A stretch of 64,000 bases of DNA from Acidobacteriota bacterium. GTDB taxonomy: Bacteria > Acidobacteriota > Terriglobia > Acidiferrales > UBA7541. A program made the translations under genes and the position numbers. The notes beneath the pieces were generated by a model that was given only the letters and a program-made list of their open reading frames with translations, made no database searches and had not been told where the DNA came from. The stretch is from positions 28,593 through 92,592 of the forward strand of contig JAJYLB010000011.1 of assembly GCA_021788095.1 (NCBI GenBank). Reading direction: 5' to 3'. This document shows, one piece after another, positions 7,378 through 50,457 of the stretch; position 1 is the stretch's first letter, and each line of letters starts with the position of its first letter.

Positions 7378-7388
7378 ATGCGGCTCAT

Positions 7389-10845: not shown

Positions 10846-10946
10846 GGGAGCCGTCTGCTAAGGGCGCCAGCGCTCATATTTTGGCGGTGGCCTATGCCTC
10901 CTGATAGGCGCCGCTGCCAGAAAGGGAGTGGAGATTTCTCCCGCGA

Positions 10947-11501: not shown

Positions 11502-11561
11502 ACGGCAAAAGACCGCGGGCAACGTGCCGGGGCTACAACTGCAACGCACGGGTGGCGCGGG

Positions 11562-17719: not shown

Positions 17720-20050
<2,331 letters not shown>

Positions 20051-20476
20051 CTAACGGGAAGCGCGCCGCGGGGCGCACCGGGTGCAGAGCCCCCGGAAAA
20101 TCAGCTCGCACTCGCGAAGGTTCCGCCTGCCGAGCGCGCCCGAAGCAGGCTTGGGCACGTCGTACCACCCCACGTCCTCGACATTTCCGCAGCAGTCGCA
20201 GATGAAGTGATGGTGGCGCGCGCCTCTCGCGTCGAACCGGGCGGCGCGCCCCTCGACCGCCACTTCGCGCACCAGACCCGCCTGCACCAAATCCCGCAGA
20301 TTGTTGTACGTCGTAGCCCGCGAAGAGCGCGGATTCGCCCGGTTCACCGCCTGGAAGATCTCCGCGGCCGTCGGGTGCCGCTTGCACTCCGTCAAAAATG
20401 CCATCACGGCATAGCGCTGCGGCGTGCACCGCAACCCGCTCCCCTCGAGCGACCGTCGAATCGCCGTAGCGCCCAT
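20051..20476 (-). CDS. fur: Fur-family (FurA/PerR-like) transcriptional regulator upstream of katG
   Basis: Motifs LRCTPQRYAVMAFL, the winged helix ATTYNNLRDLVQAGLV, and metal sites HHHFICDCCG and CTRC. It lies 42 nt upstream of katG. Confidence 0.85.
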   Translation of the reverse strand: MGATAIRRSLEGSGLRCTPQRYAVMAFLTECKRHPTAAEIFQAVNRANPRSSRATTYNNLRDLVQAGLVREVAVEGRAARFDARGARHHHFICDCCGNVEDVGWYDVPKPASGALGRRNLRECELIFRGLCTRCAPRRASR

Positions 20477-20482
20477 GCATTG

Positions 20483-20497
20483 TTAGAATCTATCTAA
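20483..20497. promoter_or_regulatory. AT-rich inverted repeat TTAGAatctaTCTAA, candidate Fur/PerR operator
   Basis: This is the only strongly AT-rich patch (attgttagaatctatctaatatgac) in a GC-rich region, immediately upstream of the fur start codon. Confidence 0.3.
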
Positions 20498-20682
20498 TAT
20501 GACAGTTCGTCAAATCGACCCGGCCCCGGGAGCGGGAACGGACACAGACCTCGTTGCTCACGATGAAGGCGATGACCTCAATGACGTGGATCGCCACAAG
20601 CCGGGAAGTTTCCTCTTCAGCTGCCGCCGGCATGGAGGGAGATTTCACGCCTATCGGGCGGAACTGAGAACGGTTTCCTGCG

Positions 20683-21096
20683 CTAGAGTTGCACTACGGA
20701 CAAGCCGGGGATTCGCTCGAAGTGGCGGACGTTGACCGTCAACACCGAGTAACTGAGCGCCAGTGCCGTAGCCCCTATGAGCAAGTCGGCGAAGGGGATG
20801 ACCACACCCTTGCTCTGCTGCTCTCCGTCGAGTTTTCCGGCCAGCATCGCCGTCTCTTTCGTGTAGGGATAGACCGTTAGGTCTGAGAGCAGTTCATTCA
20901 GGAATGCTTCGCGGCGCGAACGGATTTGCGGTGCCGAGGCGCGGTAGATGCCATGTACCAGTTCGGTCAGGCCCACGGCAGAGAGCGCCGCATCCTGATC
21001 GCCGGTCGAGCGAACGATGCGCTCGATCAGCCGTTCGACGGTCTCCCCGCGTCGTTCCGCATCGATGATGACGCTGGAATCGAGGATCAGTCCCAT
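20683..21096 (-). CDS. vapC: PIN-domain toxin VapC
   Basis: MGLILDSSVIIDAER with the PIN acidic residue pattern. It overlaps the antitoxin gene by 10 nt. Confidence 0.85.
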   Translation of the reverse strand: MGLILDSSVIIDAERRGETVERLIERIVRSTGDQDAALSAVGLTELVHGIYRASAPQIRSRREAFLNELLSDLTVYPYTKETAMLAGKLDGEQQSKGVVIPFADLLIGATALALSYSVLTVNVRHFERIPGLSVVQL

Positions 21097-21614: not shown

Positions 21615-22412
21615 TCAGTTTGCCGCCTTCGAGTAAGCGAACTGCCGTTGGCGCTCGAACCAATTCAGTTGGTCGGTGAAGCGGCAGGCTTCGCCGACGA
21701 CGATCAGGATGGGGGCGCGAAGGCCTTCGTTGGCAACTTCCGCTTCGATCGTATCCAGCGTGGCGAGAACCGTGGTCTGCTCTTCCCCGCTCACGTTGCT
21801 GATGGCGGCCACCGGCCGGCTTCCGGGAAGGCCGGACTCGATCAACGCCGCCGCGATTTCCCCGAGCCACTTCCCGCCCATGAAGATCACCAGCGTATCC
21901 ACCCTCGCCGCCAGCTCGATCCAGCTAAGGTCGGGCGAACCGGGGCAACCCGCGCCATGGGCGGATACGAACGCCACCGAGGAGGAAACATCGCGGTGGG
22001 TCAGAGGAATGCCCGCATAGCTTGCGGCAGCCAAGGCCGCGGAGATGCCGGGAACGATCTCGCAGTCGATTCCCGCTTCCGCGCAGGCCAGGGCCTCCTC
22101 GCCGCCGCGCCCGAAGATCATCGGATCGCCGCCCTTCAAGCGCACGACGGTCTTCCCTTCCCGAGCCTTCGAAACCAGGAGCGAGTTGATCTCGTCCTGG
22201 CCGATGGAATGTTTCCCGCAGCGTTTGCCCACATAGATGCGTTCGGCGCGCAGCGGGGCATGGTCGAGGAGTCGGGGGCCGACGAGCGCGTCGTAGAGAA
22301 CCACGTCGGCGGCGCGCAAGGCATCGAGCCCGCGCACGGTGATCAGGTCCTCCGCACCAGGACCCGCCCCGACGAGGAACACCTTACCTGGGTGGTTTCC
22401 CCGCTCGCTCAT
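21615..22412 (-). CDS. cobA: uroporphyrinogen-III C-methyltransferase (SUMT)
   Basis: Motifs GKVFLVGAGPGAEDLITVRGL, VVLYDAL and VVRLKGGDPMIFGRGGEE. Confidence 0.9.
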   Translation of the reverse strand: MSERGNHPGKVFLVGAGPGAEDLITVRGLDALRAADVVLYDALVGPRLLDHAPLRAERIYVGKRCGKHSIGQDEINSLLVSKAREGKTVVRLKGGDPMIFGRGGEEALACAEAGIDCEIVPGISAALAAASYAGIPLTHRDVSSSVAFVSAHGAGCPGSPDLSWIELAARVDTLVIFMGGKWLGEIAAALIESGLPGSRPVAAISNVSGEEQTTVLATLDTIEAEVANEGLRAPILIVVGEACRFTDQLNWFERQRQFAYSKAAN

Positions 22413-22986
22413 GGGTACGCACTCCTTCCAGGAAATCTTCGAGCAGCTTCTTCCGCCCTGGGAGATCGCTCGGAATCTCGAATTTCAATTTCGGGCGGAG
22501 CAGCGCCAAGGCTTCCGTCAAGTCTGCCGCGTTTTCCGGTATCGCTTCGTCGAGCCACGCGCGTAGCCGGCCCGCCAGGAACGGACTCTGCCCTCCGGTG
22601 CCGATGGCGATGGCCAAATCTCCCCGTTCGACGACGGCGGGGGTATAGAAGTTCGAAAGGGCGGGATTGTCGACCACGTTGAGCAGAGCCCCGTGCCGCT
22701 CGGCTTCCTCCGCCACGGCGACTTGCACCGCGGGATCGCTGGTCGCCGCAATCACCACGAAGAATGCTTCGGATACGTCTCCCGGCTGGAAGGGGCGGCG
22801 AACCAGCTCGAGGGTGCCTTCCCGGGCCCACGCCTCGATTTCCGCGCCGACTTCGGGAGCGATGACGGTGACCAGGGCCCTGGCCCGAAGCAATTGCCCC
22901 GCGCGCTGTGTCGCGATGGCGCCGCCGCCTACCACGAGCGCCCGACGGCCGCTCAGTTTCAGAAAAAGCGGGAAAAGCTGGCTCAC
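22384..22986 (-). CDS. precorrin-2 dehydrogenase / sirohydrochlorin ferrochelatase (CysG N-terminal-type, SirC-like)
   Basis: FPLFLKLSGRRALVVGGGAIATQRAGQLL Rossmann motif. It overlaps cobA by 29 nt. Confidence 0.8.
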   Translation of the reverse strand: MSQLFPLFLKLSGRRALVVGGGAIATQRAGQLLRARALVTVIAPEVGAEIEAWAREGTLELVRRPFQPGDVSEAFFVVIAATSDPAVQVAVAEEAERHGALLNVVDNPALSNFYTPAVVERGDLAIAIGTGGQSPFLAGRLRAWLDEAIPENAADLTEALALLRPKLKFEIPSDLPGRKKLLEDFLEGVRTHERAGKPPR

Positions 22987-23234: not shown

Positions 23235-24071
23235 TCAGTCCGGGAATTCCGGGAACCGGCGGAGGGTGACGTTCGCTTCCTTCACCCCTTCCACCGTTTG
23301 CGCGATCAGCCGGATATCGTCTTCGCTCGGCCCCACTTTCCGAATGAGAACGCCCGACGTCGCCATTTCGCCGAAGACTTCCACCTTGTCGCCGTCGGCT
23401 TTGACTTCGAACGAGACCGCACGCGACTTGACGTTGGCGGCGAGCGCGACTTTCACCCGGCAAGCCAGGGCGAAGTCGCCGAACTGTTTCCGGACCGTTT
23501 CCGTCGCCTCGTACGCCGGCAGCTTCACGACGGCGCCAATCAGGGTGCAGGCCGTCGGGATGGTGAAGTTCTTGAGATTGATGACCAAGTCGTAGTTTCT
23601 GGGGTCGCGCCAATCGAGTCCGTAGACGAATTTCGTCCACCGCACCCGCTCCTCGTCGAGCGCGGCGATCGACTCCTTCGCGGCGCTGTAATCGAGCCCT
23701 TTCCGGTTCATTAGCTCGCGAATGCGCATGGCCATCGGAGCGATCAGCCGGATGCGGAGCACGGCGGGAAGGTCGTCGAGAAGGAGATGGCCGGCGTGGC
23801 CGTGGTAGATGAGGTTGCCGCCCACGCAAGCGTCTGCCAGCGCGGATTCGAGGGCGACGAGGTAGATTCTTCGATCGGAGGTCATGCGCTCCCAAAACCG
23901 CGCGCTCTTCTCGATTTTGCCGCGCAGCACCTCCTCGGAAGCGCCCAGCTTCTCGGCGGCTTTGACGAGCACCTCGCGCGCCAAAGTGGGGTAACCAAGG
24001 TTCTGGGCCAGGCATTCGGCCAGGGCCATTCCTCCGCTCATCGAGCCGCGCGAAATCGTGATGATGGCCAT
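23235..24071 (-). CDS. cytidylate-kinase-like family protein (degenerate P-loop) with a C-terminal extension, paralog 1
   Basis: The internal ATG at 24071 lies 2 nt after the TSUP stop. The N-terminus MAIITISRGSMSGG lacks the Walker-A lysine. Other motifs: LIYHGHAGHLLL, LRIRLIAP, WTKFVYGLDWRDPRNYDLVINL, plus a ~90-aa extra C-terminal domain. Confidence 0.7.
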   Translation of the reverse strand: MAIITISRGSMSGGMALAECLAQNLGYPTLAREVLVKAAEKLGASEEVLRGKIEKSARFWERMTSDRRIYLVALESALADACVGGNLIYHGHAGHLLLDDLPAVLRIRLIAPMAMRIRELMNRKGLDYSAAKESIAALDEERVRWTKFVYGLDWRDPRNYDLVINLKNFTIPTACTLIGAVVKLPAYEATETVRKQFGDFALACRVKVALAANVKSRAVSFEVKADGDKVEVFGEMATSGVLIRKVGPSEDDIRLIAQTVEGVKEANVTLRRFPEFPD

Positions 24072-24073
24072 CC

Positions 24074-24910
24074 CTAGAGTCTCCTTGTGACGCCGCTGTA
24101 GATCATTTCCAGCGCCATGAGCAGGATCACCGCGCTGAAGAAGAGCCGCAGCGGCTTGGTAGGAACCCGCATGAGCAGCCGCGCGCCGCTGAAAGCGCCC
24201 AGGAACACGCCTAGCATCACCGGCATGGTCAACCCTGGATCGATAAACCCTTCGAACAGGTAGATACCGGCGCTGGCGGCCGCCGTAATCCCGATCATGA
24301 AATTGCTGGTGGTAGTGGATACTTTGTAAGGCAGGCGCATGAGTTGGTCCATGGCCAAAACCTTCACGGCGCCCGAGCCGATGCCGAGCAGGCCGGAGAG
24401 TGTGCCCGCTGCCAGCATCAACGAAAACCCGCCCGTCACATTGTATACCCGGTACGGTTTCCATCCCCCGACGACGGGATAGCGGGATTCCAAGCGGAGG
24501 CGGACGGCCAGCGGGTCGGAGGGCCGGTCGGTCTCCTCTTCCTCCTGGCGGCGAAAAGAGAGGTACGCCGAATAGATCAAAACGAGGCCAAAGACAATCG
24601 CAATCGTGGCGGCGTGAAGGATGCCCGCGACGATGGCGCCGAGGATGGCGCCCGCCGTCGCCGCCACCTGCAGGAACATGCCGATGCGCAGATTGGTGTA
24701 CCCCTCGTTGAGATAGGCGGAGGCCGCCCCCGACGACGTCGCGATCACCGAGATCAAAGAGGCGCCGACCGCATAGCGCAGGTTCACGTGGAAGAGCAGT
24801 ACGAGCATGGGAACCAGAATGACACCACCCCCCAGGCCCGTGAGCGCGCCGATCACCCCCGCGAGCAGGGATCCTAGAAACAGGAACGCGGTGAACTGCG
24901 TGACGTGCAT
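24074..24910 (-). CDS. TSUP (TauE/SafE) family anion permease, paralog 1
   Basis: Two 4-TM halves, with GALTGLGGGVILVPMLV and MRLPYKVSTTTSNFMIGITAAASAG. The conserved central loop is FRRQEEEETDRPSDPLAVRLRLESRYPVVGGW. Confidence 0.85.
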   Translation of the reverse strand: MHVTQFTAFLFLGSLLAGVIGALTGLGGGVILVPMLVLLFHVNLRYAVGASLISVIATSSGAASAYLNEGYTNLRIGMFLQVAATAGAILGAIVAGILHAATIAIVFGLVLIYSAYLSFRRQEEEETDRPSDPLAVRLRLESRYPVVGGWKPYRVYNVTGGFSLMLAAGTLSGLLGIGSGAVKVLAMDQLMRLPYKVSTTTSNFMIGITAAASAGIYLFEGFIDPGLTMPVMLGVFLGAFSGARLLMRVPTKPLRLFFSAVILLMALEMIYSGVTRRL

Positions 24911-24922
24911 TTCAGCGGCCTT

Positions 24923-25765
24923 TCACGCCGCCCTGCCAGATTCCTGCCCGCCGGCGAGGTGGATCGCGACCTTCTTCACGCCCTCCACCGTCATGGCCGC
25001 CTGCCGGATACGGGCTTCCTCCGGCCTGCGCAGCGGCGAGCCGGGTCCGAGGCGCGGAAGCTGCCAGACGATGTCCACTTGGCCATTCTCCGCGCGCACT
25101 TCGAACTCGAAGCAGCGAAGTTCGGAATCCCTGGCCAGAGCGAGTTGGATCCGGCAGAGGAACGCGAACGAGCGCAGACCCTTCTTCACGTTCTCCGTCA
25201 CGGCGTACGCCGGCAGCGCGATGACGGCCGACACCATGGCGCAAGCGGCTTCAATCGTCACGTCGCGCAGATGGATGACGAGGTCGTAGTTTTTGGGGTC
25301 GCGCCAGTCTACTCCGTAAACGAATTTCGTCCATTGGGCGCGTTCGCGGTCCACAAAATCGAGGTACTCGCGAGCGGCGTCGGGAGCCAGTCCCTGCCGT
25401 TTCACCAGCTCGCGGATGCGGGTTTGCCGGGGTGCGATCAGGCGCACCCGCAAGACGCCGGGCAGGCCCTTGAGCAGGAAATGGCCGGCGTTACCGTGAT
25501 AGATCAACTTGCCGGTGACCGAGCGGTCGGCCAGTGCCGACTGCAAAGCGAGGAGGTAGATTCGGCGGTCTTCCCGCAAGGTCTCTACCGCTCCCGAGGC
25601 CATCTGGATCTTTTCCCGCAAGATGTCTTCCGATATGCCGAGCGTCGCCGCCGCCTCCACCAGCACTTCACGCGCCAGGACGGGATAATGCAGCCGGGCG
25701 CCCAGGCAGCGGGCCAACTCTTCTCCTCCACTCATCGATCCGCGCGAAATGGTGACAATCGCCAT
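24923..25765 (-). CDS. cytidylate-kinase-like family protein (degenerate P-loop), paralog 2
   Basis: MAIVTISRGSMSGG, LIYHGNAGHFLL, LRVRLIAP, WTKFVYGVDWRDPKNYDLVIHL. It is colinear with paralog 1. Confidence 0.7.
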   Translation of the reverse strand: MAIVTISRGSMSGGEELARCLGARLHYPVLAREVLVEAAATLGISEDILREKIQMASGAVETLREDRRIYLLALQSALADRSVTGKLIYHGNAGHFLLKGLPGVLRVRLIAPRQTRIRELVKRQGLAPDAAREYLDFVDRERAQWTKFVYGVDWRDPKNYDLVIHLRDVTIEAACAMVSAVIALPAYAVTENVKKGLRSFAFLCRIQLALARDSELRCFEFEVRAENGQVDIVWQLPRLGPGSPLRRPEEARIRQAAMTVEGVKKVAIHLAGGQESGRAA

Positions 25766-25831
25766 GGGAAACCTCCTCGGAGCAAGCTGCCTTTCCCAGG
25801 CTCCGGCTGGGCCAAGAGAGCTGCGCGAGGG

Positions 25832-26209
25832 TTATCCTCGCCCCGCGAAAAAGAGCGCATACGTCAGAAGTCCCAAGACCAGCGCCGTGATGATGACGAA
25901 ACTCTTGTCCCGGCTCAGGAGAAAGAGCAGGCCGGTTAACGCCACGCGGATCAGTTGCACCGCCACCAGGAAGATCAACCCGAGCTGAATCAGGCCCCTT
26001 CCCGACCCCCTCTTCATGTCGTCCCAAATCCCCGCGAGCGATCTCAGGTCGGAAGGCTCTCCCCGAAAGATTCGGTAATGAACCACGTCGGAGCCGTGGC
26101 GCCACAGAAAGATGGAACCACCCGCCAGAACCGTCACCGCCGAGGCCAATACCCCGACGAGCAGAACCATGCCGATCAGCTTTTCCATCCGGCGCATCAC
26201 CAGAGTCAT
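25832..26209 (-). CDS. DUF1634 small membrane protein
   Basis: 125 aa from ATG 26209, overlapping the TSUP stop in an ATGA motif. Four hydrophobic helices (MEKLIGMVLLVGVLASAVTVLAGG ... FVIITALVLGLLTYALFF). Confidence 0.65.
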   Translation of the reverse strand: MTLVMRRMEKLIGMVLLVGVLASAVTVLAGGSIFLWRHGSDVVHYRIFRGEPSDLRSLAGIWDDMKRGSGRGLIQLGLIFLVAVQLIRVALTGLLFLLSRDKSFVIITALVLGLLTYALFFAGRG

Positions 26210-27036
26210 CGCGTCGCACCCTTGTAGATCATCTCGAGAGCCATTAGCAGAACGATGGCGCTGAACAGAACCCGCAGCGGCTTGGCATTCACAAACATCA
26301 AAACCTTCGCCCCCACCACCGCCCCGCCGAACACCCCGAGCATCACGGGCAGCGTCAGGCCGGGATCGATGAAGCCGTCGTTGAGGTAAACGCCCGCGCT
26401 CGCCGCGGCCGTAATCCCGATCATGAAATTGCTGGTGGTGGTCGAGACCTTGTACGGAAGCCGCATGACCTGATCCATCGCCAGGACGTTGACCGCGCCG
26501 GAGCCGATTCCCAGCAGGCCGGACAACACCCCTGCGACGCTCATCAGCAGGAAAGAGGGAATCACGCGATACACCCGGTAACGCCGCCAGCCTCCCAAAA
26601 CGGGGTAACTGCTCTCGAGGCCGAGCCGGAGCGCCAGGCGGTCGGAAGGGCGATCCCTCTCGCTTTCTTCCTTCCGGCGAAAGGACAGGTAGCCCGAAAA
26701 CAAGAGGACGAGTCCGAAAACCATGAACAGCGCCGGCACGGGCACCACCGCCGCCAACAGCGCCCCTCCGATGCCCCCCGCGATACACGGCAGTTGCAGG
26801 AACATCCCCAACCGCAGGTTGGTGTAGCCCTCGCTCAAGTACGCGGCAGCCGCTCCGGACGACGTGGCGATGACCGCGATCAACGACGCTCCGGCGGCAT
26901 AGTGCATCTCCACGTGGAACACCAGGACGAGCATCGGGACGAGGATGATCCCCCCGCCCATGCCGGTCAGCGCGCCGACGGCTCCCGCCGCGCACGATCC
27001 CGCGGCCACCAGGAGCAAGAAAGGAGCCGTAGTCAT
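26206..27036 (-). CDS. TSUP (TauE/SafE) family anion permease, paralog 2
   Basis: Alignable without gaps to paralogs 1 and 3, and shares MRLPYKVSTTTSNFMIGITAAASAG and the DRPSDRLALRLGLESSYPVLGGW loop. Confidence 0.85.
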   Translation of the reverse strand: MTTAPFLLLVAAGSCAAGAVGALTGMGGGIILVPMLVLVFHVEMHYAAGASLIAVIATSSGAAAAYLSEGYTNLRLGMFLQLPCIAGGIGGALLAAVVPVPALFMVFGLVLLFSGYLSFRRKEESERDRPSDRLALRLGLESSYPVLGGWRRYRVYRVIPSFLLMSVAGVLSGLLGIGSGAVNVLAMDQVMRLPYKVSTTTSNFMIGITAAASAGVYLNDGFIDPGLTLPVMLGVFGGAVVGAKVLMFVNAKPLRVLFSAIVLLMALEMIYKGATR

Positions 27037-27082
27037 CGGGAACCTCCGCGCCCTTCGATCCTCGCCTGCATCTTCCTTTCCC

Positions 27083-27922
27083 TCATGGCAGCCAGCGCAG
27101 CACGCCCTTGACTACCATCTCGATCGCCATTGCCAGCACGAGCGTGCTGAACAGGAATCGCAAGAGCTTCGCCCGCACCACCAACAGGAGCCGCGCCCCC
27201 GCGATCGCGCCTGCGAAGATGCCCAGCACCGCCGCCATCGTGAGCACGGGATCGATGTAGCCGTGGCGAACGTAAATCCCCACGCTCGCGGCGGCGGTGA
27301 TGCCGATCATGAAGTTGCTCGTGGTGGTCGACACCTTGTACGGGAGCCGCATCACCTGATCCATCACCAGCACATTTACCGCGCCCGCGCCGATTCCGAG
27401 CAAACCCGAAATGATTCCCGCCGCTCCCATCAGCAGGGAACCGGGAACGACGCGGCGCACCTTGTAAAACTTCCAGCCCCCCAGCACGGGATAGCTGCTC
27501 TCCATCCCCAGACGGATCGCCAAGGGATCGGAGGGCCGATCGGGCTCCTCTTCTTCCCTCCGGCGAAAGGACAGGTAGCTCGAGTAGAGCAGGGTGAACC
27601 CGAAAACCATCATGAGCGCCGGCACGGGCACGTAAGCCGCGAGCATGGCGCCCGCGATTCCGCCCACGATCGAGGTGAGCTGGAGGAACATCGCAACCCG
27701 CAGGTTGGTGTAACCCTGGTGCAGAAAGGTGACGGTGGCCGCGGTCGAGGTCATCGTGACCGCGATCAGGGACGCCCCCGCCGCGTTGTGCAGGTTGACG
27801 TGCAGGAGCAGCACGAGGACGGGAACCAGGAGGATCCCTCCTCCTTCGCCCGTCAGCGCCCCCACCATCCCCGCGGCCGCCCCGCCCACAGCCACCAGGA
27901 ATAAGAACAGCCATGCTGCCAT
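27083..27922 (-). CDS. TSUP (TauE/SafE) family anion permease, paralog 3
   Basis: Same architecture, with the DRPSDPLAIRLGMESSYPVLGGW loop and MRLPYKVSTTTSNFMIGITAAASVG. Confidence 0.85.
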   Translation of the reverse strand: MAAWLFLFLVAVGGAAAGMVGALTGEGGGILLVPVLVLLLHVNLHNAAGASLIAVTMTSTAATVTFLHQGYTNLRVAMFLQLTSIVGGIAGAMLAAYVPVPALMMVFGFTLLYSSYLSFRRREEEEPDRPSDPLAIRLGMESSYPVLGGWKFYKVRRVVPGSLLMGAAGIISGLLGIGAGAVNVLVMDQVMRLPYKVSTTTSNFMIGITAAASVGIYVRHGYIDPVLTMAAVLGIFAGAIAGARLLLVVRAKLLRFLFSTLVLAMAIEMVVKGVLRWLP

Positions 27923-28085: not shown

Positions 28086-29348
28086 CTAGCGCGCTCCGCC
28101 CGTGGCGGCGTTGTGAAGTTTCACCTCGACCTTCTCTTCCAAGTGGTCGTAATACTCCTTCAAGACGGCGATGACTTCCGGCTTGGAGAACTCCGCCGGC
28201 ACCGGCTTGCCTTCGCTCATCAGCTTGCGCAGCAAGGTCCCCGAGAGCAGCAGCCGGGCGCCGCCCTTGTAGTTGCCGTTGTCGTCGATCACCGCCTTGC
28301 TTTCGTGCGGGCAGGTTTTCATCGAGGCCATTGAGCCGCACTCGTAGCAGTAGAACGTCCAGTCCATCGAGAGCGGTTGAATGGCCAGGGCGCCGGCCGG
28401 CACTTCGCCAAAGATCTTCTGGGCGTCGAACGGGCCGTAATAATTCCCTACGCCGGCATGGTCGCGGCCGACGATCAGGTGGGAGCAGCCGTAGTTCTGG
28501 CGGAAGACGGCGTGCAGAAGCGCCTCGCGCGGCCCCGCGTAGCGCATCTCCATCGGGTACCCGCCCTGGATCACGCGGTCGCGGCGAAAGTACTTGTTCA
28601 CCAGGGCGTCGATCGCGCGCACGCGCACGTCCGCCGGAATATCCCCCGGCTTGAGTTTGCCCAGCAGTTGATGGATGTAGACGCCGTCGCACACCTCGAT
28701 CGCGATCCACGCCAGGTACGCATGGGAGTTGTGCATGGGGTTGCGGAGCTGCAAGGCCGCCACCGTGCTCCAGCCGCGCTCCTCGAAGAGCTTGCGCGCT
28801 TCCGCCGGCCGCTGGTAGATACCCGCGAATTCCTTCGGGAAGAAGGATTCGGACACCACCCTCACCGGGCCCGCCAGATTCACCGGGCCCTGCTCCATCA
28901 CCTTCTGCACGCCGGGATGGTTGGGGTCTTTGGTTTTGAAGACTTCCTTGCACTCGCGGTCTTTGTCGATCTTGTACTTTTCGGTCACCTTCATGGTGCC
29001 CATGAATTCATTCGTCTCGCTGTCCCAAAGCGCTACTTCCTCGCCCAGCGCCACCGCCGCGGCTAGGGCCTCGGTCGCGGAAAGCGTGATGGGAATGGGC
29101 CAGAACGCGCCTTTGCGGGAGGCGAGGCTCAGGGTGTCGCAAGTCGATTTCCAGTCCTCGGCGCCCATGAACCCTTCGAGCGGCGTGAATGCCCCGATGC
29201 CCATCATGAGCAGATCGCCGGTCTCCCGGCTCGTCATGGGAACTTTCTTGAGTTTGGCGGCGCGCTGGGTCTCCTCCCGGGCGGCGGCGGGATCGAGCAA
29301 CAGCGGCTTCAATTCCGGACTTCCATGCGGCGGTACGAGTTGGCTCAT
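28086..29348 (-). CDS. sat: sulfate adenylyltransferase (ATP sulfurylase)
   Basis: Motifs [21 protein letters not shown] and the N-terminal PUA-like domain. About 420 aa, as in dissimilatory Sat. Confidence 0.95.
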
Positions 29349-29394: not shown

Positions 29395-31323
29395 TCAGTG
29401 CACCTCGCTGACCTTGGGCGGCGGCAAGATCACGAGCCGGCCGGCCGGGGCGTGCGGGCTGTAAAGGTAATGGCGCGTGTCGGAGAAATTCAGCCGGCCC
29501 TTGTGGCATTCGGCGCAGCGGGCGATTTCCGGCTTTTTCTCTCGCGCGGCCACTTTCACGTGGCAGCCGTTGCATACCTCGTGCATCGCGTCGACGTAGG
29601 AAACGGCGTTGTAATTCGGGATCTCGATCGTGGCCCCGGCGGGCACAAGATTCTTGTGGCAATCGGCGCAGGGCTTCACGTGCGCCGAGGTGCGTGCGTA
29701 TCCCGGCTCGTGACACTCGACGCAGGCGAGATTCGCGCCGTGGGGCGAAGCGTGCCAATCGTGGCGGGAAGCGTCGCTCTTCTGGTACATGTCGCGATGG
29801 CACGCGTAGCAGCCGGAGTCCTGGTCGTGCGGCATGTTCATGTGGTGGCAGAGCACGCACGACTTCTCCCGGCCATTCCGCTCGATTTCCCGCTGGTGGT
29901 AGAAGGTCACGCCGTACCGCGTGAGGTCGCCATCGATGTAGAGCACGCCCCGGGGCAATTCCCCCGGCTGTCCGAGACTGGCGGCTTCCGAGACCCCGCT
30001 CCTCAAGTACCCCGCGTCGCCCCGCGCGCGATGGACGGGCGCGGGCACCGAGCCTTGCCGGGCCGCCAGGGGACTGCCCAGGAGAGCGAAACCTGCGCCG
30101 GCGGCAAATACGAACCCCAAGGAGTACTTGACGCGGCCGGCGACCGCCGGCGTGCCCAGCCAAGTGAAGCCCACCTTGTCGAATTCCGGCAGCTTCCGCG
30201 GATCGGCTTCCGGATCCGCGGGCCGGCTTTCCCAAACCCTGAAGTGTTCTATCATGAACAGAAAGGCGAGGGTCGCCGCCGCTACGATGCCCAGGCTGAC
30301 CGCGATTTCGGTCCACTTCGGCGCGTAGAGAGGGCCGCCGCGGCCGATGTCGGCCAAGCCGCCCACGTCAATTCGGTTCAGAACGACACCGGCCACGCCA
30401 ATGGCTGCCGCGGCCCCTTGCCACCCCGCTTGGCGCCGGAACCGCGTAGCGGACATCAAGGCGAGCGGCAAAATCGCCATGAGCGCCAGCTCCAGCCAGA
30501 ACAACTTGGCCTGCCACGCCCCACTCGCGAGGTAGTGGAGTTGTCCCCGAGCTGCCAGATCGCCGAACCGCGCTGCGACGTACACCGCCAGAACCCAGCG
30601 CGTCGCGGCGCCCAAGGGAGCCAACAAGCCGGTTTCCGGTTTGCGCCGGTAGAGGTATGCGGTGACGTGGCTTTCGAGGATCACCATCATGAGTCCCAGA
30701 GCGACCGCGGAGATAAAGAACAGCACGGGCAGGAGGGGCGAATACCAGAGCGGATAAAGGCGGTAAGGCATGATCAGGAAAAGCGAGCCGAGCGAGGACT
30801 GATGGAGCGTGGAAAGCGCGACGCCGAGGATGACCAAGGGGATGCGCAGCGTGAGCAGGAAACGCCGTAGGCTGGCCAGAGCGGAGATCCCCTCTGTCGG
30901 CACGGGAAAGAATTCCAGCATCAGCACCGTGAGGTAGAGCATCACGCACCAGCCGACTTCGAAGAGCGGCGAGCGCGGATTCCAGTAGATCGTTAAGTGC
31001 CAGATGTTCCAGGGCAGTCCGAGATCGAAGAGCAATCCGACGACGACGGCAACGTAGCCGAGGAAAGCGGTTAGAACCGCGGGCCGAACGATCGAGTGAT
31101 ACTCTTCCATCTTGAAGATATAGACCGTTGCGGTAACGACAAAGCCGCCGGCGGCCAGCGCGACGCCGCCCATCACGTCGAATCCGACCCACAGACCCCA
31201 AGGCGTGGCATCGGAAAGGTGCGTGGTCGCGCCAAGGCCGAAGGCGAACCTCGCCGTGGCGATGGCCGCTGCCAGCCCCACCATCACCCACAAAACGAGC
31301 TTTAGCCGAACCACCCTATCCAT
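29395..31323 (-). CDS. NrfD/PsrC-type integral membrane subunit fused to a C-terminal hexahaem cytochrome c domain
   Basis: The N-terminal ~400 aa form a polytopic NrfD-like domain ([31 protein letters not shown]). The C-terminal ~170 aa carry six CxxCH motifs: CVLCH, CYACH, CVECH, CADCH, CNGCH, CAECH. Confidence 0.8.
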
Positions 31324-32106
31324 TTACTTCTCCGGCTCCCTCTGGCCCTTGGCTTCCCCTGCGGCTTTCTCCGCTTGCAGGCGGTTGCGCCGCTCGATGA
31401 TCCAGTACAGACCGCCCATGGCCGCGCCCATCCCCAAAAAGGCAAAGGGCACGGACTCCATGGCCAAGGTCGTCGTCTGTGGCAGCGGTTCCTTACCGAA
31501 ATGCTCGCCATAGGTCAGGAAGGACAAATCGATGCCGGAGATATAGAGCACCGACGTGCCTCCCACTTCCGATTCACCCCAGACCCGGTCGAGGTACTTG
31601 CCCGGATTGCGCCGAATCCGGCGGTGAGCCTCGGCGAGCAGTTCGTCGCGGTCGCCGAAGATGGTTGCTTTCGCCGGGCACGCCTCGGTGCATGCCGGTT
31701 GGCCGCCCGCTTTGATCCGGTCGTAGCACAAGACGCATTTGCGAACGTACGGAACCACGTTGCTCCACTCGTAGCGCGGGATACCGAACGGGCAGGCCAT
31801 CATGCAGTAACGGCAGCCAATGCACTTGCTCGTATCGCAGAGCACCGGCCCGGCCGCGGTTTTGTGCATGGCGCCCACGGGGCAGGCATCGACGCACGCG
31901 GGATCGAGGCAATGCCGGCATTGCTTGCGCACGAAGGTGTTGTCCGCCGCGTCCACCACCGAACACCAGTTCTCGGCAGACAGCCCGTCGCCGAAATCCC
32001 ACCGGCGCGGGATGTCTCTCTCCAGGCGGTTCACCCTTTGGCAAGCGATCGCGCATTCGCTGCAGCCAGTGCATTTGGTGGTGTCGGTCAGGATGGCCGG
32101 TTTCAT
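31324..32106 (-). CDS. 4Fe-4S ferredoxin-type subunit (NrfC/HmcB/DsrO-like) with a C-terminal TM anchor and no obvious Tat signal
   Basis: It starts directly at the first cluster motif (MKPAILTDTTKCTGCSECAIAC). Further CxxCxxCxxxCP groups follow, then a C-terminal helix VPFAFLGMGAAMGGLYWII. Confidence 0.8.
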   Translation of the reverse strand: MKPAILTDTTKCTGCSECAIACQRVNRLERDIPRRWDFGDGLSAENWCSVVDAADNTFVRKQCRHCLDPACVDACPVGAMHKTAAGPVLCDTSKCIGCRYCMMACPFGIPRYEWSNVVPYVRKCVLCYDRIKAGGQPACTEACPAKATIFGDRDELLAEAHRRIRRNPGKYLDRVWGESEVGGTSVLYISGIDLSFLTYGEHFGKEPLPQTTTLAMESVPFAFLGMGAAMGGLYWIIERRNRLQAEKAAGEAKGQREPEK

Positions 32107-32876
32107 CGCTCCGACCCTCCTTTCCCGGCCGCTCCTTCAGGCAGCTCGGCGGTAAGACGGGCTTTCGGCAGCCAGGTAGGCCGGTCGCCGAACCCGAGCG
32201 TTTCGGCCACGCGGTCGCCGGCTCCCGCCGGGAACTTCCACGCGACAGCCGTCACCAATTGCGAGAGCGGCGCCAGCACGCAATGCGCGAGCTTGGTGAA
32301 GGGAATCATCAGGAGGATGAGGTCACCCGCGTACAGGTGGACCAGCAGGAATTCCTGGTAGGTCCGCGGACTGAGGATGGCGTTCGAGGCGATATAGCCC
32401 GTGACGAAGGGCGCCGCGATCAGCAGGGGCCAAAGGAAATCCTGCGCCTTGCTTATCTTTCGCGCCGCGGGGGAAAGCAGCCGGCCCAAGAAAAGTCCTG
32501 CCCCGGCAAAGATCACCAGCAACGTGAGCCAGTTCGCCAGCCGCCGCGGCAGAGCCGCCCAGCCAATCCCCAGCGCGTTGCGCCACAGAAGGATGTGCGA
32601 GGCCAGGAAGAGGGGTGTAACGATCATCCCCGCGTGGAAGAGAAAGGAAATCAGGCTGTAGATCGGCCTTTGCCGCCACAAACGCGCCATCGGGAACAGC
32701 CAGCCGAGGGTCTGCCGGCGGACCTCCTTCCATGCCACGATCTTGTCCGAACTGTTCTGGTATCCCTCTCGAACGCCGGCGAGCGTCAGGAGGACGATGC
32801 GCAGCAGCCCCAGCGCCATCAAGGCGAACGAGAGGCGGAACAGCGGGCCGCGCGCGAAATCGATCCAGGCGGTCAC
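32103..32876 (-). CDS. NarI/DsrM/HmcE-like membrane cytochrome b subunit
   Basis: The GTG start at 32876 overlaps the upstream stop in a GTGA motif. It is polytopic with conserved His residues (SFLFHAGMIV, SHILLW, LLVHLYAGD, KLAHCVLAP). The longer track ORF overlaps the upstream gene out of frame. Confidence 0.7.
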   Translation of the reverse strand: MTAWIDFARGPLFRLSFALMALGLLRIVLLTLAGVREGYQNSSDKIVAWKEVRRQTLGWLFPMARLWRQRPIYSLISFLFHAGMIVTPLFLASHILLWRNALGIGWAALPRRLANWLTLLVIFAGAGLFLGRLLSPAARKISKAQDFLWPLLIAAPFVTGYIASNAILSPRTYQEFLLVHLYAGDLILLMIPFTKLAHCVLAPLSQLVTAVAWKFPAGAGDRVAETLGFGDRPTWLPKARLTAELPEGAAGKGGSER

Positions 32877-34450
32877 GGTGATTCTCCCTGCCGGCCGGGC
32901 GTTTCGCCCCCTTCGATCCCTTCGCTTGCCGGCGCTTGGGCGGAGGCGGCTTCGGCCGCCGAATCGGGAGGCAAAACGATGGCCTTGTAAATCAAGTCGT
33001 GCAGGCCGACGATTTCGCAACTTACGCCCTGGTCTTCCATCAGCTCGCGCAGTTGCTTCTTGCAGTTGGCGCAAGGGGCGACGCAGTAATTCGCCTCCGT
33101 CCTCCGGATCTGCTCGGCTTTCAGCCTGCCGCTTACGGTGGTGCGGTAGGGGCGAACCTCGTCGAGCGATACCGTTCCCGCGCCGCCGCCGCAGCAGAGG
33201 TTGCTGCGGCCGTTCGGAACCATTTCCACGTACTGGGGGCAGAAAGCTTCGAGCGTGCTCCTCGGCTGCCGCACGATCCAGCCCGTGCGCGCGATGTTGC
33301 AGGGATCGTGATACGTCACCCTCTCCGAGACGATTTTCGGATCGAGCGGGATCCGCCCTTGCCGGATCGCCCGGTCGGTGTACTCGAGGATGCTGACCAC
33401 CGGCAGGGCATCCTTGCCGCCGCAAAACGCGGGATAGAAAAACTTCGCGGTGCGCGCCGCGTGCCCGCATTCGCCGATGATGATTTTCCTGGCCTTGAGC
33501 CGCTCCGCCTCCGCCCGCATTTTGCGGAGAACGTGCTCCATCACCTGATCGCTATAGAACAGGCCGTAATTGATCCCGTCGTAATACTGGCTGCCAATCG
33601 TCCAGCTATCCCCCGTGGCCTTGAAGGCGGCGGCGATGCCCTTCAGCGTCTCCGCCTCCATCATGAAGTCGGAAACGGAAGTGAAGAAAATGTACTCGGC
33701 GCCTTCCCGATCCACCGGGAAAGGCACGTGCACGCCTTTTTCGTCTTGGATGTCTTCGGTGAGGAATTCCAGCGTATCGAGCAGCGCGGGCAGGGGAATC
33801 GCCGAGGTATTGGCCGTCTTGCCCGTCAATTGCTCCCGCGTGCTGACCACCAGGGCCCGCGGCGCGATGCCGATTTCCGAGAGGATGTAGCGTCCCAGGT
33901 GGGCGATTAGCGCGTGGTCGATGCCCATCGGGCATTCGAAATGGCAGCGGCGGCAGGCGGTGCAGTTGTAGTAGGAATCCGCCATCTCCTGAATCTTCTC
34001 GTCGGTCAGGCCGGGATCGGCCAGAACGCGCGCGCGCAGTATCCCGGAAAGCGTGAAATGCCTGCGGTAAATCGAGAGAAGCATCTCCGAGCGGTAACAA
34101 GGGACATCGCGAGAATCGCCCGTGGCGTCGTAAATGGGGCAGGCGACGGCGCAGCGGGCGCAACGCGCCGCCACACGAACGTAGTGGTCGAGCGCAAGGC
34201 GATAGTTCGTATGCTTGAGGATGGAAGCGAAGACCTCGAGGAAGCGCCGCGGGCGGTCCGCGACGTCGCAATCCTCCACGTGGTAGCGCACCGGCAGGCG
34301 CTGCCGGGCCATCGCGTCGGGTTTCTTGGGCGTCGAGTACGCCTTCTCCCGCTCGCCCGGTTCGAGCGGCCGCGTGAGCGACTTCATCACCGATCCCATT
34401 CTGGTCTGCCCGTTTCGAAATCCCTTGGCTTCGCGAGCGACTTCCGCCAT
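32873..34450 (-). CDS. HdrD/DsrK/HmcF-like CCG-domain iron-sulfur protein (third DsrK paralog)
   Basis: Ferredoxin motifs CARCAVACP and CTACRRCHFECP. CCG-domain motifs HDPCNIAR, LCCGGGAG and CAPCANCKKQL. Confidence 0.8.
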   Translation of the reverse strand: MAEVAREAKGFRNGQTRMGSVMKSLTRPLEPGEREKAYSTPKKPDAMARQRLPVRYHVEDCDVADRPRRFLEVFASILKHTNYRLALDHYVRVAARCARCAVACPIYDATGDSRDVPCYRSEMLLSIYRRHFTLSGILRARVLADPGLTDEKIQEMADSYYNCTACRRCHFECPMGIDHALIAHLGRYILSEIGIAPRALVVSTREQLTGKTANTSAIPLPALLDTLEFLTEDIQDEKGVHVPFPVDREGAEYIFFTSVSDFMMEAETLKGIAAAFKATGDSWTIGSQYYDGINYGLFYSDQVMEHVLRKMRAEAERLKARKIIIGECGHAARTAKFFYPAFCGGKDALPVVSILEYTDRAIRQGRIPLDPKIVSERVTYHDPCNIARTGWIVRQPRSTLEAFCPQYVEMVPNGRSNLCCGGGAGTVSLDEVRPYRTTVSGRLKAEQIRRTEANYCVAPCANCKKQLRELMEDQGVSCEIVGLHDLIYKAIVLPPDSAAEAASAQAPASEGIEGGETPGRQGESP

Positions 34451-34501: not shown

Positions 34502-34903
34502 TCACGCATGCCCGCGTTCCCGCACGCCAAGAAGCTGGTGGATCTTGGCCAGAAGCTTTTCACGGTCCAAGGGCTTGTCGAAGTACCCTGCGGGCGGGCG
34601 CACTTGCTTGCGCGTCTCGATGAACTGCTTGAAGTCATGCGTAATCCCGGTGATGATGATGACCGGGACGTTCGACGTTACCGGGTCCGTTTGCAAGTCC
34701 CGGAACATGCGAACTCCCGATTCCTTCGGCATCGAGATGTCGAGCGTGATCAGATCCGGATGATTCGCCTTCGCCTTTTCAAAGCCCTCGCGGCCATCCG
34801 GCGCCGTGATCACGGCGAAACCCTCGTCCTGCAAAAACGCCTTGAGGTAGGCGGTCTGGTCCGGCTCGTCTTCGACGACCAGGATTGTCTTCAGGGTGGT
34901 CAT
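34502..34903 (-). CDS. single-domain response regulator (receiver only)
   Basis: ILVVEDEPD, DLITLDISMP, PVIIITG. 133 aa with no output domain. Confidence 0.85.
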   Translation of the reverse strand: MTTLKTILVVEDEPDQTAYLKAFLQDEGFAVITAPDGREGFEKAKANHPDLITLDISMPKESGVRMFRDLQTDPVTSNVPVIIITGITHDFKQFIETRKQVRPPAGYFDKPLDREKLLAKIHQLLGVRERGHA

Positions 34904-35424
34904 GGGGTTACCCCCCTCTTCTTTTTCAAGGCATCGAGTGCCCTTTCGACTGCCTCACGGTCGGCGCCGGAGACGGCGCGAGAGACTTCCTGGCGCAAGT
35001 CTTCGGATCGAGCTTGCGGTGGCTCCTGGGCCTGCAGGCCCAGGATGCGGCGGACGGCAGCCACGTAAGTGTCGGGATGCAAGGGCTTCTCCAGATACAC
35101 CCCGGGGCCCGACATCGTCATCTCTTCGAAGTCCGCCTTGCCCAGGTCGTCCCGCGCGTGACCGGTGACGATGAGGACCGGGATCTTCGAGAGCAGTTTG
35201 TCCTTCCGCAGTTCGTGATAGAACTGGCCTCCGGAATACCGGGGCATCACCAGATCCAGCGAAACGAGATCCGGCGGATCGCATCTCACCTTCTCCAGCG
35301 CTTCCAGGCCGTCCGCGGCCGTCTCCACAACGAATCCCGCATCCGTGAGCGCGCTCCTTAAGTACTCGCGGATGTCCGGCTCGTCATCCACCACCAACAC
35401 CCGCCTCGGCTGATCGTCGTTCAT
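34900..35424 (-). CDS. response regulator, receiver domain plus a short helical tail, no DNA-binding domain
   Basis: VLVVDDEPD, DLVSLDLVMP, PVLIVTGH. A ~50-aa C-terminal tail has no recognisable output domain. Confidence 0.85.
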   Translation of the reverse strand: MNDDQPRRVLVVDDEPDIREYLRSALTDAGFVVETAADGLEALEKVRCDPPDLVSLDLVMPRYSGGQFYHELRKDKLLSKIPVLIVTGHARDDLGKADFEEMTMSGPGVYLEKPLHPDTYVAAVRRILGLQAQEPPQARSEDLRQEVSRAVSGADREAVERALDALKKKRGVTP

Positions 35425-38527: not shown

Positions 38528-39465
38528 TTCTTGCCGCCCTGTGCTGGATTGGTGATCGCGATTTCCGCCCACGTCTTGGCGCCATCGGCGCCGATGTGCG
38601 GCGCGGCCCACGTCGGCCGATAGGTCAGCATCTCGGCGATCCTCTTCTCGATCCCGCTTCCCCTCCCATTGGGCTGGTCGCCCCAGCGCACGGAGTGGTA
38701 GGTGAAATACTTCGCGATGAAATGCGACATATGCGTCAGCGGGATGTAGGCCACGAGCAGCGCGCCCAGTACCAAACCGAATCCGAAGAGCGCCGGGACC
38801 CGCAACCCTGCGTCGAAAGTCAGCAGGCCTCGCGCGAGGGCGAACGCGCTGAAGGAACCCTTGCCGCGCCAAAGGTAGCCGGCGGCCAAAAACCCAGCTG
38901 CGACGATGAAGAACAATAGATTAAAGATGTCGGCGGGCGTCGTATAGGGCTTGAGATCAGCGTCCGTGAGCCTCTGGAGGAGCAAACCCGCCGCGCCCGC
39001 CAGCGTCAATCCGATCCCGGCCGGCCCGAGGATCACGCAGGCGCCGTGGAGAACGATGCCTGGCCCGGCAGCCCAAGATCGAGGTGCGACGATCCAGAGG
39101 AAGGCGCTCGAAAAGAGAAGCGCTGTCGCGCCAAACAGCAGGTAGAGACCGAGGTGAAAGGGATAGGAGCGATACCACGTCTTCTTCTTGAACTCCCAGA
39201 GCCCTTTCAGGAAGAGCATCTCCGCCAGCATGGCCTTCAGCTCGCCAGACCGGTTGAATTTGGCGGGTTGGGTCCACCAGTCCTTCATTTCAAAATACGA
39301 ACCGCCATGCGCTGCTCGCCCCTTCTCCTCGTGAGGCACGGGGTAGATTTCCCAGCGCAGGTGCAGCGGCAGCCGCGCATAGCCCGCGGCTCGAACGATG
39401 CTGGCCACGACAAAGACCGCCAAGCTGGCGTACAAGACGGCATAGATTGCGATCGTGCTCACCAT
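38524..39465 (-). CDS. DsrM/NarI-like membrane cytochrome b (second DsrM paralog)
   Basis: Polytopic, with N-terminus MVSTIAIYAVLYASLAVFVVASIVRAAGYARLPLHLRWEIYPVPHE and PFHLGLYLLF. It is paired with a DsrK-like gene. Confidence 0.75.
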   Translation of the reverse strand: MVSTIAIYAVLYASLAVFVVASIVRAAGYARLPLHLRWEIYPVPHEEKGRAAHGGSYFEMKDWWTQPAKFNRSGELKAMLAEMLFLKGLWEFKKKTWYRSYPFHLGLYLLFGATALLFSSAFLWIVAPRSWAAGPGIVLHGACVILGPAGIGLTLAGAAGLLLQRLTDADLKPYTTPADIFNLLFFIVAAGFLAAGYLWRGKGSFSAFALARGLLTFDAGLRVPALFGFGLVLGALLVAYIPLTHMSHFIAKYFTYHSVRWGDQPNGRGSGIEKRIAEMLTYRPTWAAPHIGADGAKTWAEIAITNPAQGGKK

Positions 39466-40810: not shown

Positions 40811-40820
40811 CGTCCACGCC

Positions 40821-50455: not shown

Positions 50456-50457
50456 CT

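Follow-up and report, generated by a model that had tools for sequence, protein, structure and literature searches.

The DNA examined here is a stretch of 64,000 nucleotides (the window; 64% G+C) from contig JAJYLB010000011.1 of an Acidobacteriota bacterium (assembly GCA_021788095.1), Terriglobia-like by the labels of its nearest homologues. It carries a co-directional supercluster of dissimilatory sulfate-reduction genes, about 36 kb long and on the minus strand, with the outline dsrN-aprBA-qmoABC-dsrAB...dsrMKJOP...sat-[array]-dsrV-dsrWa. The array, which is the subject of this report, consists of six genes that encode three TauE/TSUP permeases, a small DUF1634 membrane protein, and two proteins of the Cytidylate_kin2 family (PF13189) with a BON-like C-terminus, K1 and K2. 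The array genes and their immediate neighbors, with the names dsrV and dsrWa taken from Hausmann et al. 2018, are as follows:

28086-29348, minus strand: sat, sulfate adenylyltransferase (Pfam ATP-sulfurylase and PUA_2; NCBIfam NF003166, 474 bits, above cut-off)
27083-27922, minus strand: TSUP3, TauE/TSUP permease, 279 amino acids (Pfam TauE, E-value 5.9e-46, full-length profile)
26206-27036, minus strand: TSUP2, TauE/TSUP permease, 276 amino acids (Pfam TauE, 6.4e-47)
25832-26209, minus strand: DUF1634 small membrane protein, 125 amino acids (Pfam DUF1634, 2.9e-22)
24923-25765, minus strand: K2, PF13189 domain and C-terminal BON-like domain, 280 amino acids (Cytidylate_kin2, 4.4e-35, residues 3-165)
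24074-24910, minus strand: TSUP1, TauE/TSUP permease, 278 amino acids (Pfam TauE, 6.1e-48)
23235-24071, minus strand: K1, PF13189 domain and BON-like domain, 278 amino acids (Cytidylate_kin2, 4.1e-36, residues 3-166)
22384-22986, minus strand: dsrV-like gene, precorrin-2 dehydrogenase/sirohydrochlorin ferrochelatase-like (Pfam NAD_binding_7 and Sirohm_synth_M)
21615-22412, minus strand: dsrWa-like gene, uroporphyrinogen-III C-methyltransferase, SUMT-like (Pfam TP_methylase)

The gaps from sat to K1, taken from the open reading frame (ORF) listing and start-site mapping, are 163, 46, -4, 66, 12 and 2 nucleotides. The negative value is an ATGA stop/start overlap of TSUP2 with the DUF1634 gene, read directly in the sequence, and the last is the gap between TSUP1 and K1, the final array gene before dsrV. 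The three permeases are 60-70% identical in pairs (60% for TSUP3 and TSUP1), and give an alignment free of internal gaps; the string MRLPYKVSTTTSNFMIGITAAAS is the same in all three. For K1 and K2 the identity is 54% in a gap-free alignment of 270 residues; both begin MAI(I/V)TISRGSMSGG and extend about 100 residues past the Pfam domain. A preliminary description of this locus had reported the gene order, spacings, overlap, gap-free permease alignment, shared strings and common K N-termini, all of which we confirm, and its family assignments stand well above the Pfam cut-offs: 158-164 bits for the permeases against TauE (PF01925, cut-off 32.6, profile positions 1-237 of 237), 79.1 bits for the DUF1634 protein (PF07843, cut-off 27.5, positions 1-102 of 102), and 125 and 122 bits for K1 and K2 against PF13189 (cut-off 28). 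Neither Rfam families nor intergenic terminators or promoters above chance were found in the 20-30 kb region of the window, and the run from sat to dsrWa is uninterrupted.

A K-family profile (20 aligned relatives) was used to scan one genome per species; at least 587 encoding stretches were found, and the best 79 loci were analyzed. The array order, [TSUP]-TSUP2-DUF1634-K2-TSUP1-K1-dsrV-dsrWa, is kept in metagenome-assembled genomes (MAGs) of Terriglobia and other Acidobacteriota (loci L001-L009 and L016), with two to five TSUP copies per array and two distinct K lineages maintained. A TSUP2-type orthologue precedes DUF1634 in L001-L004, L006-L008 and L016, a K2-type orthologue follows DUF1634 in the Terriglobia arrays, and a TSUP1-type orthologue precedes K1 in L001-L009 and L016. 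The sat-proximal counterpart of TSUP3 is present in L002-L004 and L006-L008, and there sat lies 72-196 nucleotides upstream of the first TSUP gene (123 nucleotides in L085). Co-directional placement among sat, apr, qmo and dsr genes is conserved in the Terriglobia loci and in L082 and L085. Simpler triads also occur: sat-TSUP-DUF1634-K-dsrV in L085, and dsrM2-dsrK2-DUF1634-K-TSUP-dsrV-dsrAB in L082, the DNA that carries the permease of Candidatus Sulfotelmatobacter SbA7. The array is a real, conserved gene content and no chance pattern.

The pairing had been described as one of no characterized function. In the literature searched, no paper was found that links TauE with a cytidylate-kinase-like protein or with DUF1634, and a 2023 study of dsr synteny does not mention kinases, permeases or transporters. 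The synteny itself had not gone wholly unnoticed, however: the depositors of the SbA7 orthologue named it 'predicted permease protein (dsrJOP associated)', and the clusters as drawn by Hausmann et al. 2018 show syntenic genes without known function (PMC6018796).

The K proteins and their relatives

The N-terminal 185 positions of the K profile match the solved PF13189 structures 3HDT (6e-17) and 3FDI (5e-14), and positions ~176-273 match YraP/DolP (1.9e-4) and OsmY (2.5e-4). An AlphaFold2 model of K1, with a predicted local distance difference test score (pLDDT) of 87, combines a P-loop-kinase-like domain with a C-terminal unit of alpha-beta-beta-alpha-beta (BON) topology. In a Foldseek search with this model, 3FDI and 3HDT come out on top, ahead of cytidine monophosphate (CMP), shikimate, adenylate and adenosine 5'-phosphosulfate (APS) kinases at 11-19% identity; the target-normalized TM-scores are 0.78-0.84 for the solved PF13189 members. 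The Pfam BON model finds the K2 C-terminus weakly (E-value 0.1) and does not match K1; among relatives its matches are significant or borderline, with 44 bits in a Chloroflexota K (L048), 27 and 21 bits in two acidobacterial K proteins, and further matches in P0279 and P0305. The extra C-terminal domain of about 90 residues seen earlier is therefore present, and profile and model together point to a BON-like domain, predicted to bind membranes, joined to the PF13189 domain. The N-terminus of K leads straight into the kinase-like fold, beginning with its first strand, and carries no signal peptide, so that predicted contact with the membrane would be with the cytoplasmic leaflet.

The P-loop ISRG(S/T)MSGG is invariant in the 20 aligned relatives and departs from the Walker-A consensus GxxGxGK[ST], with glycine at the lysine site and a non-hydroxyl residue at the threonine site. 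Its lack of lysine had been noted at this locus. The absence is real, and we reject it as an oddity of the locus, because 3HDT and 3FDI (P-loops REYGSGG and REFGSGG) are likewise lysine-less and the missing residue is a hallmark of the PF13189 family. We also reject K as an ordinary CMP kinase, since the Walker-A lysine and threonine are absent and the scores against the NCBIfam CMP kinase model (TIGR02173), 37.0 bits for K1 and 21.2 for K2, fall far below the equivalog cut-off of 102.1. Other residues invariant in the 20 relatives include R8, R67, R108, R116, R118 and R142, Y89-H90-G91, A93-G94-H95, and two cysteines; they appear compatible with a ligand pocket.

The family is large: among 1.84 billion representative proteins, the K profile finds 8,604 at E<=1e-3, 3,664 at E<=1e-10 and 483 at E<=1e-30. 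Some members are fused to further domains, with K-BON-CBS (P0305, P0275) and K-receiver (P0342, P0264) combinations, and forms of about 506 amino acids end in two hydrophobic, transmembrane helices (P0297, P0293). Such fusions to receivers, CBS domains and membrane anchors would be expected of a signal-output or sensor domain at the membrane, and not of a metabolic kinase. A kinase role for the K proteins is very unlikely; they have the look of regulators associated with the membrane. The literature search returned passing mentions of PF13189 only, and nothing functional.

Gene neighborhoods across phyla

ORFs within 5 kb of K were clustered in the 79 loci, and the cluster representatives were annotated. 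TauE is by far the commonest neighbor, being found in 55 of the 79, and these loci span Acidobacteriota, Desulfobacterota, Binatia, Myxococcota, Chloroflexota, Gemmatimonadota and others; the co-occurrence of permease and kinase-like protein thus extends well beyond the genome in which it was first noted. In 24 loci TauE lies within 300 nucleotides of K on the same strand, and about half of the 24 loci that lack TauE have truncated flanks. The density of TauE genes is 84 in 791 kb (1 per 9.4 kb) within 5 kb of K versus 7 in 427 kb (1 per 61 kb) at 5-10 kb, a 6.5-fold fall. Other neighbors, counted over the 79 loci, are PPDK_N/PEP-utilizers proteins of about 850 amino acids (32), stand-alone receivers (27), Alph_Pro_TM (24), HAMP histidine kinases (19), DUF202 proteins (11) and DUF1634 (11).

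A recurrent order in Desulfobacterota and Binatia is TauE, Alph_Pro_TM (PF09608), a phosphoenolpyruvate (PEP)-synthase-like protein, two receivers and K-BON, often with a DUF202 protein. The DUF202-containing neighbor was tested as a hidden K paralogue and is not one. This module is found in L015, L037-L043, L051, L059 (~3000-11800) and L072, and also in L080 (2602-10855), often far from sulfur genes; its PEP-synthase-like protein has ATP-grasp and swivelling-His domains, and the C-terminal 300 residues match nothing solved. No mention of DUF1634, PF07843, Alph_Pro_TM, PF09608 or TIGR02186 was found in the literature searched. The window has neither PEP-synthase-like nor Alph_Pro_TM genes, the TSUP of the recurrent module belongs to a different subfamily, and both module versions occur in one array after sat in L013.

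One reading of these loci is that TSUP and K form a general signal-controlled transport or envelope-stress module, recruited beside dsr clusters and only incidentally linked to sulfur. It would account for the many Desulfobacterota and Binatia modules that have no sulfur genes within 10 kb, for a module TSUP only ~23% identical to those of the window, for triads in sugar-metabolism contexts (L084, L010), and for the size of the K family. Against it, wherever a Terriglobia locus is informative, the window-type array lies embedded between sat and dsrV, in the same direction and with tight spacing, and K recurs beside apr, dsr, sat and siroheme genes of unrelated phyla, including that of L080; we consider this reading quite unlikely.

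The sulfur linkage that had been anticipated for the pairing is seen in several phyla. At least seven lineages have K relatives (37-55% identity) no more than 10 kb away from dsrAB, aprBA, qmoAB, sat or dsrMKJOP: Binatia (L015), Anaeromyxobacter (L014), Deltaproteobacteria (L017, L018, L029), Planctomycetota (L040), Chloroflexi/Dehalococcoidia (L048, L054, L055), Gemmatimonadaceae (L071), and Thermoanaerobaculia and other Acidobacteriota (L023-L025, L044, L047, L070, L078). In Binataceae L080 the order is dsrMK, Alph_Pro_TM, TauE, PEP-synthase-like, K, K, DUF202, K, cobA, with dsrN (CbiA) nearby on the opposite strand. Given this spread over phyla, and despite the bias of the sample, coincidence of K with sulfur genes is unlikely.

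In four loci K stands directly upstream of aprBA-qmo: L044 (5987-9570), L070 (9971-13522), L078 (9887-13731) and L015. The non-catalytic role that had been suggested for K, as a nucleotide sensor gating the permeases, is plausible in view of the missing Walker-A lysine and serine/threonine and the receiver and CBS fusions; but K cannot simply be a permease gate, because it also precedes aprBA where no permease is nearby. K might instead serve the soluble pathway, as a regulator that binds AMP, APS or pyrophosphate (PPi) or as an atypical phosphotransferase for Sat or AprBA, with shared regulation as the sole reason for its adjacency to TSUP. The aprBA loci, two of which have no TSUP upstream, agree with this, as do K genes no farther than 10 kb from dsrAB, sat or qmo in MAGs of Chloroflexota, Planctomycetota, Gemmatimonadaceae and Myxococcota, the nearness of the fold to nucleotide kinases that include APS kinase, and the many invariant arginines. 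We nonetheless judge it improbable: the Walker-A lysine and threonine are absent family-wide, a membrane location is suggested by the BON domain and by relatives with transmembrane anchors, TauE is the commonest K neighbor, and K accompanies TSUP far from sulfur genes (L084, L010).

Permeases and proposed role

An AlphaFold2 model of TSUP1 (pLDDT 80) has five helical segments, a central loop, and five more helical segments. The two helix sets are equivalent in the model, and a BLASTP comparison of one half with the other is non-significant (E-value 12). The modeled loop contains a disordered acidic stretch (120-132), a short helix (133-137) and a beta-hairpin (142-153). By sequence no solved structure matches TSUP or DUF1634, and the best Foldseek match of the TSUP model, BacA/UppP, is weak (E-value 0.01). 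The DUF1634 protein has hydrophobic segments at residues 8-36 and 68-125, and its gene adjoins a TSUP gene at spacings of -10 to about +50 nucleotides in L001, L002, L004-L008, L010, L011, L013 and L016; it is likely an accessory subunit of the permease.

The conserved charged loop had been proposed as the site at which K gates the permease. In the alignment, a core of P-x-D-P-L-A-x-R-L, then Y-P, G and Y-x-V, is common to permeases with and without a linked K. Permeases with a linked K more often carry the FRR-x-EE and GW-x-x-YRV features, but that of L010, also K-linked, lacks them. Because the core is kept in K-less pairs, the loop is a trait of the TSUP-DUF1634 subfamily, and its role as a K-specific docking element is unsupported. 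A crude hydropathy and positive-inside count is indecisive on topology; with the loop's own 7-9 lysines and arginines included, the loop is probably cytoplasmic.

The closest non-acidobacterial homologues of the window permease are in Chthonomonas calidirosea, an aerobe that is not known to reduce sulfate. There (L083, 6300-9348) a TSUP 66% identical to TSUP1 is followed by DUF1634, with no K; this pair is divergent from a sulfatase/phosphodiesterase-like gene. A Desulfovibrionaceae MAG (L086) has a K-less TSUP-DUF1634 pair in a housekeeping context.

Sulfate uptake is unresolved for many lineages of dissimilatory sulfate reducers, and TSUP proteins have been proposed as their missing sulfate carriers, being the sole candidates in some organisms (PMC5840216). 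A TauE-family protein was found in 2024 to complement E. coli delta-cysA, that is, to restore sulfate uptake (PMC11535334), and CysZ of C. glutamicum, also a TSUP protein, is linked to sulfate uptake as cited in PMC5840216. The earlier suggestion that the window permeases import sulfate thus has both a published hypothesis and a precedent behind it, and from gene position and precedent sulfate uptake would be their most economical role.

We propose that the TSUP and DUF1634 proteins are oxyanion permeases, most likely for uptake of sulfate for Sat, and that the K proteins are peripheral-membrane regulators, a reading to which we assign a probability of about 0.45. The basic unit would be a triad of a TSUP permease, a translationally coupled DUF1634 subunit and a cytoplasmic K, which in the window would have been duplicated and elaborated as TSUP3; TSUP2, DUF1634 and K2; and TSUP1 and K1. 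The permeases would carry the sulfur oxyanion of the pathway over the inner membrane, our best guess being sulfate that feeds Sat. K has lost the Walker-A lysine and threonine from a nucleoside monophosphate (NMP)-kinase-like fold and kept an arginine-rich pocket and a glycine-rich loop, and the BON-like domain would be expected to hold it at the membrane. There, by binding a nucleotide or anion and possibly through physical contact with the permease, it may tune transport, the first steps of the pathway, or both to cellular status, perhaps with signal input from receiver proteins and a PAS histidine kinase encoded upstream.

Several observations weigh against this proposal. The same TSUP-DUF1634 pair, 61-66% identical, is K-less in Chthonomonas and the Desulfovibrionaceae MAG; DUF1634-K-TSUP or TSUP-DUF1634-K triads stand away from sulfur genes in L084, L010 and L011; and K precedes aprBA without TSUP in L070 and L078, where the upstream genes are of lysine, alanine and citrate metabolism. 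The sulfur linkage is inflated by relatedness, because the 79 loci were ranked by similarity to the K of a dsr cluster. No experiments on this TSUP subfamily, on DUF1634 or on the K-BON clade were found in the literature, and related proteins have been given other roles: tauE of A. fulgidus (AF1562) was suggested to be a sulfite importer (PMC3949148), and a TauE homologue of Dissulfuribacter an exporter of sulfite or sulfate (PMC13490349). The lack of sulP and dass in SbA7, which has sat, aprBA, qmoABC and dsr (tables of PMC6018796), is weak evidence because this MAG is only 55% complete.

The window permeases might accordingly move sulfite, thiosulfate or another sulfur anion, taking up sulfite as an acceptor or exporting excess sulfite or sulfate, with K still a regulator. 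Founding TSUP members were assigned to sulfite and sulfoacetate export (as cited in PMC5840216 and PMC11535334), and in Dissulfuribacter TauE and a 'transmembrane protein co-occurring with TauE' are co-regulated and rise in thiosulfate disproportionation (PMC13490349). The SbA7 triad, moreover, adjoins dsrV-dsrAB and not sat: SbA7 genes 670006-670008 fall between dsrK2 and dsrV, the positions of DUF1634, K and TSUP in L082. We think a substrate other than sulfate unlikely, as sat lies directly upstream of the first TSUP gene in the window and seven related loci, and two TSUP proteins—the TauE homologue by complementation and CysZ as cited—are tied to sulfate uptake. In the sulfite-only SbA5 (96% complete) the gene numbers of dsrM2, dsrK2, dsrV and dsrA are contiguous, so that there is no room for a triad at the dsrK2-dsrV junction, and those of dsrV and dsrA are adjacent in SbA1, also sulfite-only (PMC6018796). 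The contrast of SbA7 with SbA5 and SbA1 is consistent with a function at the pathway's sulfate end, although the genomes are very few and one is only 55% complete.

The array also abuts dsrV and dsrWa (and, in relatives, dsrN), and the permeases could in principle supply a metal or precursor for assembly of siroheme or sirohaem-amide. That dsrV and dsrWa follow the array in all Terriglobia loci, that K adjoins cobA and CbiA/dsrN in Binataceae L080, and that the TSUP-like C-terminus of MamO is matched weakly in NCBIfam would agree with this; but the MamO matches are 20-28 bits against a cut-off of 800 bits, adjacency to sat is equally constant, and the TSUP-DUF1634 pair is also present in organisms without dsr. 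We know of no TSUP protein that carries tetrapyrrole precursors, and regard this role as very improbable.

Beyond sulfate uptake with peripheral K regulators, a bolder proposal would make PF13189-BON proteins an unrecognized class of membrane-peripheral sensors devoid of kinase activity that read AMP, APS, PPi or sulfate and control TSUP/DUF1634 permeases. The array would then be the missing, feedback-regulated importer for acidobacterial dissimilatory sulfate reduction, and the same sensor would act in the receiver and PEP-synthase-like phosphotransfer modules of many phyla. Taken as a whole, we would call this doubtful.

The remaining genes of the supercluster, in the order in which they precede sat, are as follows:

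57642-59192, minus strand: dsrN
55186-57547, minus strand: aprBA, then a gene for a CxxCxxCC protein, before qmoABC
49310-53980, minus strand: qmoABC
46959-48038, minus strand: dsrB
46701-46949, minus strand: ORF of 82 amino acids in the dsrD position, directly after dsrB
45433-46641, minus strand: dsrL-like gene, a DsrL/GltD-like flavoprotein of only 402 amino acids
between the dsrL-like gene and dsrMKJOP, minus strand: dsrT-like gene
39509-44601, minus strand: dsrMKJOP
36920-39465, minus strand: extra DsrM/K-like pair (CCG, Fer4 / Nitrate_red_gam)
35421-36917, minus strand: PAS-PAS histidine kinase (Pfam PAS_4, PAS, HATPase_c)
34900-35424, minus strand: stand-alone receiver protein (Pfam Response_reg)
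34502-34903, minus strand: stand-alone receiver protein (Pfam Response_reg)
32103-34450, minus strand: second extra DsrK/M-like pair (CCG, Fer4 / Nitrate_red_gam)
29395-32106, minus strand: 4Fe-4S dicluster protein and NrfD::multihaem cytochrome c fusion (642 amino acids), directly upstream of sat

The histidine kinase and the two receivers sit between the two DsrM/K-like pairs. With a member of the receiver family that flanks K in other phyla the receivers share 52% and 39% identity, and together with the histidine kinase they are a possible signaling input to K.

We place dsrA, which is unannotated, in the stretch of about 1.3 kb just upstream of dsrB, where it presumably lies. The 82-residue ORF at 46701-46949 has no Pfam match at E<=0.01. 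The 402-residue DsrL-like protein aligns in two pieces to relatives of 558 amino acids that adjoin dsrAB in other loci, and short DsrL forms of 396-413 amino acids were reported by Hausmann et al. (PMC6018796). One of the extra DsrK-like proteins is unusually long (650 amino acids). The NrfD-type membrane protein has a C-terminal multihaem cytochrome c domain, its gene is preceded by that of the iron-sulfur protein, and the pair is kept in the same position in L001-L004, L006 and L008. Downstream of the sulfur cluster, positions 17720-21096 (minus strand) hold a catalase-peroxidase-like ORF of 762 amino acids and ORFs of 141 and 137 amino acids, from translations read by eye.

With TSUP and DUF1634 between sat and the siroheme genes, the locus is a conserved and clonable candidate for acidobacterial sulfate uptake, and the usual carriers are missing from some acidobacterial MAGs whose pathway is complete (SbA7, PMC6018796). 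The locus also offers a first entry point to the function of the PF13189-BON proteins, a family of thousands of members with two solved structures and no assigned function that is genomically tied to permeases, apr/dsr genes and signaling domains. Should K proteins prove to be ligand sensors that control anion uptake, they would constitute a new type of transporter regulator and a control point at the entry to sulfate reduction in abundant soil and peat bacteria.

Comparison with known systems

The window permeases resemble characterized members of the TSUP/TauE-SafE family (TC 2.A.102; C. necator TauE, C. glutamicum CysZ, and P. fluorescens TK06_RS10770) in their size of about 280 amino acids, their full-length match to the TauE profile and their sulfur context, and, in the model, in having two helical halves and a central loop. 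Unlike those members, they are associated with DUF1634 and K-BON, are triplicated, and lie in a dissimilatory rather than an assimilatory cluster.

K1 and K2 share sequence, fold and the lysine-less loop R-x-x-G-S-G-G with the PF13189 proteins 3HDT (Clostridium symbiosum) and 3FDI (Eubacterium ventriosum). Those are single-domain proteins of about 200 amino acids, structural-genomics entries with no assigned function, whereas the window proteins add the BON-like domain, read YHG(H/N)AGH where 3HDT has a GR-containing motif, and occur in linkage with permeases and dsr/apr genes. With CMP kinase (Cmk) and other NMP kinases, K shares the P-loop NMP-kinase-like fold and an arginine-rich, presumed ligand pocket; it differs in lacking the Walker-A lysine and threonine, and its identity to solved kinases is only 11-19%.

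The C-terminal 90 residues of K match OsmY and DolP/YraP by profile and have the same alpha-beta-beta-alpha-beta topology. OsmY and DolP are periplasmic, whereas the BON-like domain of K would face the cytoplasmic leaflet. The BON domain of DolP is reported to bind phospholipid (PMC7806268).

Ligand-sensing partners of transporters include SbtB for the bicarbonate transporter SbtA, GlnK for AmtB, and the CBS or STAS domains of MgtE, OpuA and SulP. K is unrelated to PII-like, CBS or STAS proteins in both sequence and fold; by analogy with SbtB and GlnK, however, it would likewise be a small cytoplasmic protein of nucleotide-binding type encoded beside a permease.

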